NCBI GenBank assembly: GCA_963752475.1
Contig: CAVVYR010000004.1
Coordinates: 96,001-160,000, forward strand
Reading direction: 5' to 3'
Length of the DNA: 64,000 bases
Origin: an uncultured Chloroflexia bacterium
GTDB taxonomy: Bacteria; Chloroflexota; Limnocylindria; Limnocylindrales; CSP1-4
Shown: piece by piece, positions 14,202 through 20,672 of the stretch
Layout of the letters: each line of letters begins with the position of its first letter
Numbering within the stretch: position 1 is the first letter of the stretch
Notes under the pieces: generated by a model
What the model saw: the letters and a program-made list of their open reading frames with translations, nothing else
Told to the model about the DNA's origin: nothing
The model's database searches: none
Position numbers and translations under genes: made by a program

Positions 14202-15200
14202 TCAGTTCAGGTCGATGGCGATGATGGAGGGGCCGTGCTTGACGGTCCCCTCAGGGCCGATGGCCTGGTTGCTGACGTACGCCACCAGGCCCTCTTCGCC
14301 CTCATACAGGGCCACGCTCGATGGGCCGGAGAGACCGTCGTCCACGTCTGCCACTGCCGAGATCTCGCCCTCGGGGTCGACCTTCCAGAGGGTGTGGTTG
14401 GACGGGTCAGCCACGTACAGGTAGCCGGCCTCGTCGAAGGCGATGCCATCGGGTGAGGTGCCGGGCAGCTCGGCGTAGACGAACGGCTCGCCGGCAGCAC
14501 CACCCCCGAGGATCGGGACACCGACCACGGTTCCCTGCTCGGTCACGGCGACGAAGACCGTGCCGTCGCGGACCGCCACACCGTTCGCTCCGACCGGGAA
14601 CGGGAAGGGCAACGCACCCGTTCCCTCAAGGAGTGGATCGTCGATCCACACCTCGGGCTCGGCGTAGCCGACGAACCCAAAGAGCTTCAGGCGCCAGATC
14701 TGACCCGTGGCCGAGTCAGACACGTACATGTGTTCGGCCGACTCATCGAAAGCGATGGCGTTGGCCATGGCCATCTGCTCCGTGCCTTCGATATGCCACC
14801 ACTCGTTGCCCGGATCGGAGCGCCCGTACGGGTCAAGCACGTGCACGCCGTTGAGCGCCGGGTCGGACGACACCACCGCTGTATACAGCCCGTGCATGTA
14901 TTGGTCCCGGTCACCGTTCAGCGCCATCCCGGTAAGACCGAAGTCGCCCTCTTGGAGCCCATCGAGTACGAAGAATGACTCGGCTTCGTCACTACCCCTC
15001 GCCAGCTTCAGGAAGCGGCCCTGGCTGGAGATGCCCGTGAAGACGTTGCCCTCCAGATCCACCGCTACGCCCTCGGCCACCTCGCCCGCTTCCAGATCGA
15101 ACGGGATGACCACGCGCGCGTGATCGTCGCCCGCGACGGCCCCGGCCAACGCCAGGGTCGCCGCCATGCCTACAGCAAGACCGTGGATCAGGCGCTTCAT
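14202..15200 (-). CDS. Secreted SMP-30/gluconolactonase-like beta-propeller protein
   Basis: Signal peptide [24 protein letters not shown]; AEGVAVD, ANAIAFD, GANGVAV, PDGIAFD blades; GGAGG RBS. Confidence 0.75.
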
Positions 15201-15312
15201 CTCAACCTCCTCGCGCAGCGCGCGGTCGTCGAGCACCCTCGTGCCCCCTGTCGACTTAGTGGGGACAGACGCGGACACGGGTTCCAAATCCGCGGACGGC
15301 TACCATGCAGCG

Positions 15313-16779
15313 GTGACCGAAGCGCCGAAGTACACGAACCGCCTCATCCACGAGACCAGCCCCTACCTGCTCCAACACGCTCACAACCCGGTGAACTGGT
15401 ATCCGTGGGGCGAGGAGGCGCTGGCTCGGGCCAAGGAGCTCGACCAGCCCATCTTCCTCAGCATCGGCTACGCCGCCTGTCATTGGTGCCACGTGATGGA
15501 GCGCGAGTCGTTCGAGGACGAGGACACCGCTGCCGAGCTCAACGCCGCCTTCGTGCCGGTGAAGGTCGACCGCGAGGAGCGGCCCGACCTCGACAGCATC
15601 TACATGGACGCGCTGCAGGCGCTCACCGGCCAAGGCGGCTGGCCCATGAGCATGTTCCTTACGCCTGAAGGTCTCCCCTTCTACGGCGGTACCTACTTCC
15701 CCGACAAGCCCCGTCACGGCATGCCCGCCTTCCGCGTGCTCCTCGCTCGCATCGCCGACGTCTGGGACGACCGACGCGAGTGGGTCGAGTCGACCGCGAC
15801 GAAGCTGGCCGACCGCGTCCGAGAGGGCCAGGACGCCCCTGCCCGACTCCTCGCGGCCCTCTCCGAGCTCCCCGAGGTGGACCCGGCCCACCGCCTCGAC
15901 GACGCCACCAAGGGCATGCTCAAGTCGTTCGATCCTGTGAACGGCGGCTGGGGCGAAGCGCCGAAGTTCCCGCAGGCGATGTCGATCGAGTACCTCCTGC
16001 GCGAACACCTGCGGACCGGCGCCAAGGAGCCCCGACTGGTGGCTGAACGCACGCTCGACGCCATGGCCGCGGGCGGTATCTATGACCACCTCGGTGGCGG
16101 CTTCGCGCGCTACTCCACGGACGCCGCCTGGCTCGTGCCGCACTTCGAGAAGATGCTCTACGACAACGCCCTGCTCGCCCGTGCCTACGCCCATGCCGCA
16201 GAGCTCAGCGGTGACGCGAGCTATGGCTACTACGCGCGCGAAACGCTCGACTTCGTAGCCCACGAGATGCGCAACCCTCCCGGCGGTGCGTTCGCAGCCT
16301 CCCTCGACGCCGACACCGAAGGGATCGAGGGCGCGACGTACACCTGGGACGCCACCGAGGTGCGCGAGCTCCTGGGCGATGCTGCACCGCTGTTCGAGGA
16401 TGCCTACGGTGTGACCGACGGAGGTAACTGGGAGGGCCGCACGATCCTCAACCGTGTTCGCGGCGACACCGACCTCGCGGTCGAGCACGAACGGCCTCGC
16501 GATGAGATCGCCGAGGAGCTGGCCGAGGCGCGGACCCAGCTGCTTCGAGCCCGCGACGAACGACCGCAGCCCGCGCGCGATGACAAGGTGCTGACCAGTT
16601 GGAACGGGCTGATGATCGCCGCCTTCGCCGACGCCGGCCAAGCCCTCGCTGAGCCCTCCTTCGTGCGTATCGCGACCGAAGCGGCCGACTTCATCCTCGA
16701 CCAGCTCCGAGCGCCGGGTCCGGACGCAGAGACCGAGCCAGAGCACACGCCAGAGCCAGAGCCGGAGCACGAGGCGTGA
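15313..16779 (+). CDS. YyaL/SPATA20-like thioredoxin-domain protein, N-terminal part
   Basis: [72 protein letters not shown]. Confidence 0.9.
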
Positions 16780-17471
16780 CCCAGGCCACCGAGCTCATCG
16801 TCTCGATCCACGTGCCCAAGACCGGCGGCGAGACCTTCCGCGACATCCTCGAAGCGCTCACCGAAGGCCACCTGCAGCGAGACTACGGTGACCGGCCGCT
16901 GGCGCCCATGACCATCCGGCAGCGCATCCGCCTGGCCACGGCCCGGCCGCAGCTGGAGCCCGGCACGCGCGCGGTCCACGGTCACTTCATCGCCACCAAG
17001 TACTGGCGGCGCTACCCCGAGGCCCGCTACATGGCCTGGTTCCGCGAGCCGATCGAGCGCCTGGCCTCGCACTACCACTACTGGAAGCGCAAGCCCGATC
17101 GCAAGAACCCGACCTGCCGGAAGCTCATCGAAGAGGATCTCTCACTGTCGGGCTTCGCGGGGCTGCCCGAGATGCGTGACGTGCAGGCTCGCTTCCTCGG
17201 CGAGGTCCCGCCCGAGCGCCTGGCCTTCGTCGGCATCACCGAGCGCTACGGCGAATCGATCGACCTCTTCCGCCGCGCCTTCTACCCGGCCATGCCGTCG
17301 ACCGCGGAGCACGTCAACGCCAACCCCGAGCGCGATGGTGAGCGCTACCAGCTCGACCCCGCCGTCCGCGGCGAGATCGAACGACTCAACGCCGCCGATA
17401 CGAAGCTCTACGAGGCGGCGCTGGTCCGCTTCGAGACGCTCCTCGCGACGCATCCGGAGCCCAGCGCATGA
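16776..17471 (+). CDS. Sulfotransferase family protein (Sulfotransfer_2-like)
   Basis: 5'-PSB-like [14 protein letters not shown], 3'-PB-like [31 protein letters not shown]. Confidence 0.8.
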
Positions 17472-18160
17472 GCCGCCGAACGCTGCGTTCCTGGAAAGAC
17501 GGTCGGGCCCAGCACGACGGCACGCTGGAGGACTACGCCAACCTCGCCGAGGGGTTGCTCACGCTCTATCAGACCACGTTCGAGGAGCGCTTCTTCACCG
17601 CTGCGAGGGAGCTGGCAGACGCCATCCTCGACCACTTCGAAGCTCCCGAAGGCGGCTTCTTCGACACGGCCGACGACGCCGAGGAGTTGATGGCCCGACC
17701 GCGCAACCTGCAGGACAACGCGGTGCCCTCGGGTGGCGCCATGGCCACGACGGTGCTGCTGAAGCTGGCCGCCTTCACCGGCGACGCTCGCTATCGCGAT
17801 GCGGCCGAACGTGCCCTCGCGCCGATCGTCGGCATCGCCGCCCAGCACCCCACCGGCTTCGCCCAGTGGCTCCAGGCCTACCAGCTCGCGAGCAGTCCCA
17901 TCGACGAGATCGCCATCGTCGGTGATCCCGCCGCGGAGGACACCGGGGCCCTGCTCGCGATGGCCCGTGATGGCTTCCGGCCGAACCAGGTCATCGCCGT
18001 CTCAGCGGACCCCGCCGGCAGCGCCGTCCCGCTGCTCCACGACCGCCTCATGCTCGACGGTGCCGCCACCGCCTACCTCTGCCGCGGCTTCGCCTGCCAG
18101 CGCCCCACGACCGACCCGACCGAGCTGGCCAGCCAACTCAAGGCGGCTCGCTCGTCGTAG
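17468..18160 (+). CDS. YyaL/SPATA20-like protein, C-terminal part
   Basis: LRSWKDGRA, LEDYA, GGFFDT, QDNAVPSG, ATAYLCRGFACQRP are the typical C-terminal motifs of this family. Confidence 0.85.
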   Translation: MSRRTLRSWKDGRAQHDGTLEDYANLAEGLLTLYQTTFEERFFTAARELADAILDHFEAPEGGFFDTADDAEELMARPRNLQDNAVPSGGAMATTVLLKLAAFTGDARYRDAAERALAPIVGIAAQHPTGFAQWLQAYQLASSPIDEIAIVGDPAAEDTGALLAMARDGFRPNQVIAVSADPAGSAVPLLHDRLMLDGAATAYLCRGFACQRPTTDPTELASQLKAARSS

Positions 18161-18189
18161 GCTAGGGACATGCACTCCCACTGCGTCGC

Positions 18190-18858
18190 ATGACGACTTC
18201 CCGCGCCCCACGCGCCATCATCTTCGACCTCGACGGCACCCTCGTGGACACGGTCGGCACCCGCGTCGACTCATGGATGGCCGTCTTCCCCAAGTTCGGC
18301 ATCGATCCCGAACCGGAGTTCCTGGCACCGCTCATGGGCTCCGACGGCAAGTACCTCGCGCGCATGGTGGCCGAGGAGTACGGCGTCGAGTTGCAGCCTG
18401 GCGATGACGCCGAGATCGACATCCAGGCCGGCGCCGAGTTCCGCGTGCTCAACGCCGACCCGCGCGTCCTGCCGGCGGTCGCGGAGACGCTCGAAGGCCT
18501 GACCGATCGCGGCATGCCCTGGGCGGTCGCCACCTCCAGCCTGCCCGACGACGCACGCGAATCGGTCCAGGCCATCGGGCTGCGCTCGATGCCCATCATC
18601 TGCGACGGGGCCGATGTCGAACACGCCAAGCCCGCGCCGGACCTGCTGATCAAGGCCGCCGGACTGCTGAACGTGGAGCCCGCCGAGACCTGGTACGTGG
18701 GCGACTCCAAGTGGGACATGGTCGCGGCCAAGGCCGCCGGCATGCGCGCTATCGCGGTGCTCACCGGAGCCACCAGCGCCGAGGTCCTGGCCGACTCCGG
18801 CGCTGACGTCGTCTACGCCACGATGGCCGAGTTCCAGGCAGAGATCCCGCCGGCCTAG
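18190..18858 (+). CDS. HAD family hydrolase/phosphatase
   Basis: IFDLDGTLVDT, VATSS, KPAPD, VGDSKWD. Confidence 0.9.
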   Translation: MTTSRAPRAIIFDLDGTLVDTVGTRVDSWMAVFPKFGIDPEPEFLAPLMGSDGKYLARMVAEEYGVELQPGDDAEIDIQAGAEFRVLNADPRVLPAVAETLEGLTDRGMPWAVATSSLPDDARESVQAIGLRSMPIICDGADVEHAKPAPDLLIKAAGLLNVEPAETWYVGDSKWDMVAAKAAGMRAIAVLTGATSAEVLADSGADVVYATMAEFQAEIPPA

Positions 18859-19620: not shown

Positions 19621-20672
19621 CTACTCGGTGACGATGAAGTCGCCCTGCATGGTGTAGTAGTGGCCCGGGACGGTGCAGGCGAAGCGGATATCGGTCAGAT
19701 CCTCGGGCACGACCCACTCGAGTTCCTGAACGCCGAGGTTCCAGTCCGGGATGCCCACGTCGGTGACGCCACCCATCACCTGCAGCTCATCGTCGCTGCC
19801 GATGTAGAGGTTATGCGGGAAGCCGGCGGTGTTGTCGACGCGGAAGATGACCGTCTCGCCTGGCGTGACCTCCAGCTCGCGGATCTGCTCCCCGCCCTGG
19901 AGGAAGCGGATGGCTGCGTCGGCCTCGAGCTCGATGACCCGGGCTTCGCCGCTCGGCTCCGCAGGCTCGGCCGGCTCGTCTGGTTCGGCGGGCTCGGCGG
20001 GCTCCTCGGGCTCGGCGGGCTCGGCTCGCGGGCTCGGCCGGCTCCTCGGGCTCGGCCGGTTCCGCGGGCTCGGCGGGTTCCTCGGGCTCGGCCGGCGCGC
20101 CATCGGCGACCGAGAACGTGCCCGACATCGTGTAGTAGTGGCCGGGGACGGTACAGGCGAACTTCAAGTCGGTCAGATCCTCGGGTACGACCCACTCGAG
20201 TTCCTGGACGCCCGTCGACCAGTCGGCGATGCCGATATCGGTCGTGGCTGAGGGTACCGACAGCTCCGCGTCCGTGCCGATCCAGAAGTTGTGCCCGAAG
20301 CCGGCGGTATTGTCGATGCGGAAGATGACGGTCTCGCCGGGCGTGACGGGGATGTCGGGAACGGGCTGACCGCTGGCGTCGGTGAAGCGCAACGCGCTGT
20401 CAGCCTGCAGGTCGATGACCCGGGCCTCTCCGCTCGGCTCGATGGGCTCGGCCGGCTCTTCGGGTGCCGTGGGCTCGGCCGGCTCTTCGGGCGCCGTGGG
20501 TCTCGGCGGGCTCCTCGGGCTCGGTCGGCTCGGCGGGCTCGGTCGGCGTGTCGGCGAGATCCGAACCGTTGTCGGGTGCGGGTGTCCAACTGCTATCCGA
20601 ACCACTCGAACAGGCAGCCAGCACGAAGGCAAGGGCGAACAGGGCCACGACGACCCTTGGGAGACTCTTCAT
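19621..20672 (-). CDS. Lipoprotein with two tandem auracyanin-like cupredoxin domains; several frameshifts in the Pro/Glu linkers
   Basis: Lipobox LAAC; two copies of HN...FACTVPGHYYTM(S/Q)G type-1 copper motif; (PAE/PEE)n linkers broken near 20500 and 20030-20100. Confidence 0.75.

Follow-up and report, generated by a model that had tools for sequence, protein, structure and literature searches.

The gene for a YyaL-family protein is carried as two separate coding sequences, with a complete sulfotransferase-like gene (ST) nested between them, in the genome of an uncultured Chloroflexia bacterium. The locus lies in a stretch of 64,000 nucleotides (nt) of contig CAVVYR010000004.1 (assembly GCA_963752475.1, positions 96,001 to 160,000, forward strand), hereafter referred to as the window and numbered from its first letter; the source genome comprises 4.25 Mb in 38 contigs, with an estimated completeness of 89%. 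We favour, with a probability of about 0.75, a stable fission of the gene by insertion, in which yyaL-N, ST and yyaL-C would form a translationally coupled unit of three cistrons.

A first-pass annotation, made from the letters of the window alone, had described an N part of YyaL, a sulfotransferase and a C part of YyaL, with their coordinates and a four-letter overlap at each junction (GTGA, then ATGA), and all of this proved accurate. Indeed, the three are consecutive plus-strand open reading frames (ORFs) in three different frames (table 1), and YyaL is encoded here not as a single chain but by two ORFs in different frames with a 693-nt gene between them. The same annotation saw in this arrangement a stabilized gene-within-gene producing a two-chain YyaL, an interpretation now strengthened by the recurrence of the layout in six species, by purifying selection and by the retention of all invariant columns.

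The two YyaL chains and the nested gene

The N part matches the Pfam family Thioredox_DsbH/DUF255 (PF03190) over residues 8–168 with 253.9 bits (cut-off 27; E = 8.4e-76), and the C part gives weak (alpha/alpha)6-type matches (GH47, 23.2 bits; GH127 also seen). An NCBIfam search of ST and the C part returned nothing useful. When compared with the solved single-chain protein 7tkv_A (668 amino acids, aa), the N part matches residues 7–442 (E = 3e-124) and the C part residues 462–659 (E = 1.6e-5), mannosidases also being among the matches of the latter. Thus, the two parts tile 7tkv_A, and the two chains jointly cover a member of the YyaL family. The CHWC motif (C56, H57, W58, C59) and all other family-invariant columns are kept across 24 N-part and 25 C-part sequences, intact relatives included. 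We know of no biochemical function assigned to the YyaL/SSP411/SPATA20 family, and the 25 papers listed, of 225 matching a literature search on YyaL, SPATA20, DUF255 and 7TKV, are SPATA20 association or expression studies or unrelated work, none of them treating the biochemistry of the bacterial protein.

Intact relatives, with open frames of about 700 aa, read ...AADFILxxLRxxDGRLLRSWKDG... over the break site, the LRTPDG form being typical. The break falls between LRxPDG and RLLRSWKDG, in the loop that separates a barrel helix from a beta-hairpin; in an AlphaFold model of the intact relative G054 (26-row alignment; predicted local distance difference test, pLDDT, 80.8), this position maps between helix 442–458 and strands 466–471/474–478. 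The invariant residues at the site are G464, L466, R468 and W470, and none of the ancestral residues at the break was lost. In the six species that carry the split, the N chains retain LRAP../TAPDGG and then run into an acidic low-complexity tail, extending 11–44 aa after ADFIL, which is variable in sequence among species and mostly acidic, and whose GAG/GCG codons supply the GGAG/GAGG motifs upstream of the ST start. The C chains begin with M or V followed by one to three residues ahead of LRSWKDG. At the other end of the N part, an upstream in-frame ATG at 15166 is also open, and the gene call of a near relative, beginning MTDAPQYTNRL, fits the later start (GTG, 15313).

Two side observations concern the barrel. 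The copies of the only long repeat found, a direct one of 44 nt (70% identical; 16672–16715 and 17603–17646), encode homologous helix-to-loop units of the barrel, the first immediately ahead of the break and the second (ARELADAILDHFEAP) in the C chain. Two other members of the genus (G007:C30:51142-52785 and G012:C49:5828-7369) show roughly 100 and 40 extra in-frame codons, respectively, between the thioredoxin-like domain and the barrel, near N-part residues 185–204 and within one long open frame.

Proteins related to ST, of about 225–240 aa and annotated as ‘hypothetical’ (153 matches), form a widespread family. Sulfotransferases that use 3'-phosphoadenosine-5'-phosphosulfate (PAPS) carry a 5'-phosphosulfate-binding (5'-PSB) loop of the PKxGxT type and a 3'-phosphate-binding (3'-PB) motif, RxPxxRxxS. 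Among 15 diverse homologues of ST, the motifs S-x-H-x-PKTGG, HGHF and R-x-P-x-x-R-x-x-S are invariant, including P14, K15, T16 and G18 in the first and R90, P92, R95 and S98 in the last. The family profile matches heparan-sulfate 6-O- and 2-O-sulfotransferases (HS6ST 5t03, E = 1.3e-8; HS2ST 4ndz, E = 2.2e-5) with the PAPS-binding motifs aligned. An AlphaFold2 model of ST (pLDDT 86.4; predicted template modelling score, pTM, 0.85) gave 10 matches at E <= 0.001 in a Foldseek search of the PDB, all the matches listed being sulfotransferases, and the best of them were HS2ST 4ndz and 3f5f (E ~1e-5, template modelling score, TM, 0.56–0.59). The assignment of the nested ORF to the PAPS-type sulfotransferases, already made in the first-pass annotation, thereby finds backing in motifs, profile and fold. 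In addition, the same genome contains a gene for adenosine-5'-phosphosulfate (APS) kinase (PF01583, 201 bits), so that PAPS can be made. From its sequence and model, ST is probably an active, likely carbohydrate-directed, sulfotransferase. Three weak paralogues (27–32% identity) occur elsewhere in the genome (G000:C1:68953-69510 and G000:C20:30572-31605), two of them adjacent on contig 20.

Table 1. Features of the split yyaL locus, in window coordinates.
Feature	Position	Strand	Details
yyaL N chain	15313..16779	+	488 aa; GTG start; stop 16777-16779; thioredoxin-like DUF255 domain and most of the (alpha/alpha)6 barrel
Acidic Pro/Glu-rich low-complexity tail of the N chain	16708..16776	+	no counterpart in intact YyaL
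Junction 1, GTGA	16776..16779	+	N-chain stop overlaps ST start
Nested sulfotransferase-like gene (ST)	16776..17471	+	231 aa; GTG start
5'-PSB loop PKTGG of ST	16815-16829	+	motif alignment
3'-PB motif RxPxxRxxS of ST	17043-17069	+	motif alignment
Junction 2, ATGA	17468..17471	+	ST stop overlaps C-chain start
yyaL C chain	17468..18160	+	230 aa; ATG start; beta-hairpin (RSWKDG), last barrel helices and C-terminal subdomain

Downstream of the locus, a gene for a HAD-family hydrolase (18190–18858, plus strand) begins 29 nt after yyaL-C and occupies the same place in the split loci of G005, G056, G013, G009 and G049. Further on, the minus strand of the window (19621–20632) carries two adjoining similar ORFs with a common C-terminal motif (...FACTVPGHYYTM...) and long Pro/Glu-rich (PAEPEEP) repeats; the overlap of their frames points to a tandem duplication that has a frame problem, and no Pfam family matched them at E <= 0.001.

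Conservation, selection and probable coupling of the split locus

The genus was sampled through 49 genomes, 47 of which contain the YyaL C part. Close orthologues of ST (E <= 1e-104, 67–82% identity) were found in six of them, namely the genome of the window (G000), G005, G013, G056, G009 and G049, and in all six ST stands directly between the YyaL parts; the order seen in the window is thus present in five further species of the genus. The remaining 41 of the 47 have no orthologous ST, and most of these have an intact YyaL. In G005, G056 and G009, the frames follow one another as in the window (–1 from the N part to ST, –1 from ST to the C part), and G049 shows the same arrangement on a contig that starts inside the N part. 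The tetranucleotide RTGA occurs at both junctions in 6/6 species amid divergent surrounding letters, the upstream frame of G013 running into the GTG of junction 1. The recurrence of a three-frame layout with RTGA at both junctions is, on the sequences compared, far beyond chance. Conserved co-location of an upstream stop with a downstream start is described as support for translational coupling (PMC3711429), and such co-location was found at both junctions.

The first-pass annotation had also pointed to a GGAG motif ahead of both junctions in similar contexts. This is true of the window, where GGAG lies 12 nt upstream of each overlap, and of junction 1 in general, where GGAG or GAGG is found 11–14 nt upstream of the ST start in all six species. 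At junction 2, however, a GGAG or other Shine–Dalgarno-like motif is present in two of the six only, and the likeness of the two contexts in the window is accordingly in part a coincidence.

The proteins delimited by these junctions recur in independent assemblies. ST is exactly 231 aa long in 38 of the 51 best protein clusters, and the C part exactly 230 aa in 47 of the 51 best (75–100% identity; ENA, JGI, NCBI and Logan assemblies), with two further C-part clusters (73–74% identity) starting V/MSRR(V/L)LRSWKDG. Support across the junctions, which the first-pass annotation had singled out for checking, was found for both in contigs from other studies. Junction 2 is bridged without gaps by records 13 and 14 of X2 (17355–17585) and by record 23 of X4 (17424–17574). 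Junction 1 is bridged with its frame kept by record 19 of X4 (–6 nt) and by a joint of X2 (57 nt reduced to 15, that is –42 nt), the changes being confined to the acidic tail.

Both halves look undecayed, as had been noted from the window alone, even though relatives with an intact yyaL exist. The ratios of non-synonymous to synonymous substitution (dN/dS; pairwise Nei–Gojobori estimates on codon alignments) among the split species are 0.08–0.21 for the N part (10 pairs), 0.11–0.34 for ST (15 pairs) and 0.14–0.28 for the C part (15 pairs), the dS values of the halves ranging from 0.2 to 1.0. The corresponding ratios in intact relatives (eight sister pairs picked from the tree) are 0.12–0.23 and 0.13–0.21 for the N and C parts, respectively. 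On these estimates, purifying selection on the halves is of ordinary strength, as in intact relatives, which together with the retention of all invariant columns rules out a recent disruption.

As to the means by which ST entered the gene, neither a target-site duplication nor direct or inverted repeats bounding the insert were found. The six neighbouring ORFs (helix-turn-helix, SMP-30/gluconolactonase-like, HAD, DUF6062 or no family) include no transposase or integrase, so the earlier statement that there is no transposase stands for this part, the one checked, of the window.

We propose that the ancestor of one subclade of this Chloroflexota genus gained a small PAPS-type sulfotransferase gene inside the yyaL loop, and that the three cistrons would since be co-transcribed on one mRNA. 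Ribosomes ending the N chain would re-initiate at the overlapping GTG, aided by the GGAG motifs in the codons of the acidic tail, and ribosomes ending ST would re-initiate at the overlapping ATG; the presence of a Shine–Dalgarno-like motif in only two of six species at junction 2 fits re-initiation rather than independent initiation. This scheme draws on the layout and on the general behaviour of overlapping stop/start pairs, as outlined in PMC3711429. Such coupling should yield the two YyaL chains in about equal amounts. As each chain holds just a portion of the barrel, neither could form one unaided, and the N and C chains would reassemble non-covalently into a working YyaL. The acidic tail may act as a ribosome-binding region for the ST gene, as an electrostatic assembly aid, or as both. 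A scan of 15000–18400 with consensus promoter and terminator models returned 0 and 0 sites, the consensus being uninformative for a GC-rich organism.

Objections and alternative readings

Several observations weigh against this reading, the first of which come from phylogeny. A maximum-likelihood tree was built from the concatenated N and C parts of 28 genomes, leaving out G001, G002, G007, G008 and G022, in which the gene is in pieces, and 16 other genomes of the genus for which no suitable locus had been retrieved. The six ST bearers and the intact G006 form one clade (Shimodaira–Hasegawa-like approximate likelihood ratio test, SH-aLRT, 99). Within it G006, whose yyaL is intact and which lacks ST, clusters with G009 and G049 (SH-aLRT 95), and these three have in common a derived LAEM motif where the others read xxLR. 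From the position of G006, the history is not one of a simple single gain: taken at face value, the tree needs either a gain followed by an exact loss, or an allele replacement by recombination via the yyaL arms, or two gains. On the other side, monophyly of the six ST bearers is not rejected (approximately unbiased test, p = 0.109). Between the two subgroups, the dS of ST (0.66–0.95) is similar to that of the N and C parts (0.55–0.78), as expected for joint inheritance.

Other objections concern the data. All the genomes are metagenome-assembled genomes (MAGs), several with obvious indel errors, and the bridging evidence consists of low-depth Logan contigs rather than raw reads; no single piece listed spans the whole stretch, the pieces listed for X1, the run that covers the locus best, bridge neither junction and leave the bin 17337–17433 without cover. 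None of the 20 runs listed for the locus is an RNA run. For ST, the match to Sulfotransfer_2 of Pfam (PF03567; 18.2 bits) lies below the cut-off of 22, and an identity that is weak on Pfam alone was confirmed through the family profile and the predicted fold. The association of the two YyaL chains is something that we infer. Finally, although the ST-to-C junction of G013 is of the usual kind, its N part and ST share one 723-aa open frame. A single base decides this frame, as one C fewer in a CCC run just upstream would, on our reading of the letters, restore both an ...AEADA* tail and the GTGA overlap; the open frame of G013 may reflect a genuine fusion or a fault of assembly. Among database proteins, P0121 (714 aa) joins the N part to ST through about 45 out-of-frame residues, and P0096 joins ST to the C part similarly. 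Taken together, G013 and P0121 leave room for a real N–ST fusion in some lineages.

The ALTERNATIVES examined comprised –1 frameshifting, fused proteins, a split intein or homing endonuclease, mobile-element ends and same-site splits elsewhere. Among the competing explanations, an unlikely one gives ST a functional tie with YyaL: ST would be a third subunit, or would act next on the same, possibly glycan, substrate, and its nesting would have been selected for co-expression. The layout kept in six species with overlaps at both junctions and the purifying selection on ST agree with such a tie. So do the likeness of the YyaL barrel to glycan-acting (alpha/alpha)6 enzymes (the GH47, GH127 and mannosidase matches) and the action on glycans of the nearest solved relatives of ST. 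The wider distribution of the two genes speaks otherwise. Scanning of representative genomes brought up 460 relatives of ST; of the best 80 loci, which were kept, four have YyaL within about 4 kb, all of them known members of the genus. The 76 loci without it include Myxococcota (57% identity), Verrucomicrobiota and Gammaproteobacteria, and the flanks of the closest stand-alone ST outside the genus (L059, Myxococcota, 57% identity) gave no usable Pfam assignment. With 76 of 80 ST loci lacking YyaL and 41 of 47 genomes of the genus lacking ST, the association is lineage-specific; moreover, the intact G006 apparently manages without ST.

The neighbourhoods of ST homologues (56 loci; 107 ORFs, the longest in each flank of about 1.8 kb) offer some glycan-related families, namely GT2 (4), GDP-mannose dehydratase (3), DegT (3) and Wzt_C (3), the last three being of O-antigen type. 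The commonest neighbours, however, are MFS transporters (MFS_1, 10), with Acatn (8), ABC_tran (5) and methyltransferases (4) also present. The gene context, as read from these ORFs, is mixed, with a minor glycan flavour and no consistency. If ST were a functional partner, a substrate class for YyaL/SPATA20 would be indicated, which the present evidence does not favour. The suggestion of the first-pass annotation that the nesting hints at the function of YyaL is not sustained: judged from gene distribution, it is probably not a general clue, and the association may be a historical accident. We infer that the link between ST and YyaL is positional rather than demonstrably functional.

A stronger version, which we regard as less probable again, makes the nesting adaptive, with ST an obligate partner of the two-chain YyaL, a 1 : 1 : 1 ratio enforced by the double coupling and a barrel binding a glycan- or sugar-like substrate that ST modifies. 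Were it true, it would offer a first biochemical way into what the widespread YyaL/SPATA20 family does. A prediction of the three-chain complex (N and C chains with ST as partner) scored 0.00, below the mark set, and counts neither way.

It is improbable, too, that ST is a neutral or selfish passenger, moved by homologous recombination through the yyaL flanks and kept because its excision must be exact. The two changes needed by the gene tree, with the grouping of G006, and the restriction of the YyaL association to one subclade are what such a passenger would leave. However, its dN/dS and its invariant catalytic motifs denote selection on the ST protein itself, its divergence tracks that of the YyaL halves, monophyly of its bearers is not rejected, and no endonuclease, integrase or bounding repeat was found.

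The first-pass annotation had offered as an alternative a –1/–1 read-through fusion, that is, one polypeptide made by two programmed –1 frameshifts or by transcriptional slippage, with ST as a domain in the YyaL loop. Both frame changes are indeed –1, the site is a surface loop that would tolerate an inserted domain, and G013 has its N part and ST in a single open frame, but we hold this reading to be very improbable. No slippery heptamer (X_XXY_YYZ) occurs within 60 nt upstream of any of the 12 junctions, and the upstream letters vary by species whereas an ATG or GTG stands exactly at the overlap in all six. The conserved GGAG/GAGG ahead of the ST start is likewise at odds with it, and the G013 frame would revert to the usual tail and overlap with the loss of one C. 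No clean fused protein was found: among 2800 longer database proteins, one matched, and its junction is out-of-frame junk.

That the locus is an artefact of assembly or sequencing, or a pseudogene broken recently, is barely credible: the sequences are MAGs and frameshifted YyaL pieces occur in several of them (see below), but six species and dozens of independent assemblies share these junctions, contigs from other studies bridge them, dN/dS is as in intact relatives, and an indel error cannot yield a 693-nt foreign gene.

Two further candidates were rejected. A split intein was set aside as Pfam finds no Hint or intein domain and there is no room for one, the tail being 11–44 aa of low complexity and the C chain starting at extein sequence. 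A gene-in-pieces created by a homing endonuclease was discarded as motifs and fold mark the inserted ORF as sulfotransferase-like.

Breaks in YyaL were also observed elsewhere. No further lineage split at the same loop turned up among those searched: of 12 family loci fetched, nine are single-frame N+C genes, three are contiguous frameshifts and none has an ST. Short proteins resembling the C part on long contigs have varied start positions. Two C-part gene calls from more distant relatives (P0211 and P0221, about 60% identity) begin within this loop or next to it (MDEDGRLGRSWKDG and MARFGRSWKDG); their source genomes are absent from the sample searched (best match 79%), and they may be independent splits or frameshift artefacts. 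Besides, YyaL occurs as two to four abutting frame-shifted pieces, with no insert, in G001, G002, G008, G014 and G022 and in G378, G350 and G263 (L141, L145 and L142). In these few-contig assemblies, the pieces look like long-read indel errors or true pseudogenes, and they call for caution with any frame-based finding in the clade.

Comparison with known systems

Most known cases of stable genes-in-pieces in which a whole gene has been inserted come from phages, and the insert there is a selfish endonuclease. A bacterial gene stably split by a metabolic gene is a rare case, for which we make no claim of a first report. This locus stands out for having an ordinary enzyme gene as the insert, on a bacterial chromosome, with the host gene surviving as two selected chains across several species. 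It would serve as a natural experiment, showing at which point an (alpha/alpha)6 barrel tolerates a cut without loss of function, and as a tidy case of double translational coupling that arose after an insertion. It also invites caution in annotation, as the halves are called ‘hypothetical’ or ‘partial YyaL’.

With respect to its components, the system departs from relatives of known structure. Unlike the single-chain YyaL/SSP411/SPATA20 proteins (7tkv_A), this YyaL is encoded as two chains, its invariant residues being kept. ST resembles the heparan-sulfate 2-O/6-O sulfotransferases (3f5f, 4ndz, 5t03) in its PKTGG loop, in its RDPxxRxxS motif, both of which align, and in its fold (TM 0.55–0.59, normalized to the query), but it is smaller (231 aa), bacterial, 15–19% identical and sub-threshold in Pfam.

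With respect to its layout, the locus shares with ordinary prokaryotic gene fission and coupled genes, as presented in PMC3711429, adjacent cistrons that are parts of one ancestral protein, with a co-located stop and start. In ordinary fission, however, the halves adjoin, whereas in yyaL an unrelated third gene stands between them and is coupled on both sides. The fractured genes described in 2009, in which an enzyme gene is split by a homing endonuclease gene (PMC2677866), offer the same succession of half, inserted gene and half on one strand. As far as that description extends, they differ in their intein halves and in their endonuclease insert, yyaL having neither, and its C chain starts no more than four residues before LRSWKDG.

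The nearest parallel to the proposed rescue is found in Aeromonas phage Aeh1, where mobE, the gene of a free-standing homing endonuclease, interrupts the ribonucleotide reductase gene nrdA and leaves it as nrdA-a and nrdA-b (Crona et al. 2011, PMC3045599). According to that account, the fragments regain function by assembling with one another, no splicing of RNA or protein being involved; activity requires the tails that the insertion created, for which a role as protein interaction domains is proposed. In both systems, on the same account, a complete foreign gene lies inside a conserved enzyme gene and the halves remain separate, with new tail sequence at the break. The yyaL locus differs in that its insert is a sulfotransferase-like metabolic enzyme, in that it lies on a bacterial chromosome and in its 4-nt overlaps on both sides. 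By analogy, non-covalent rescue is presumably common to the split YyaL and the split NrdA.

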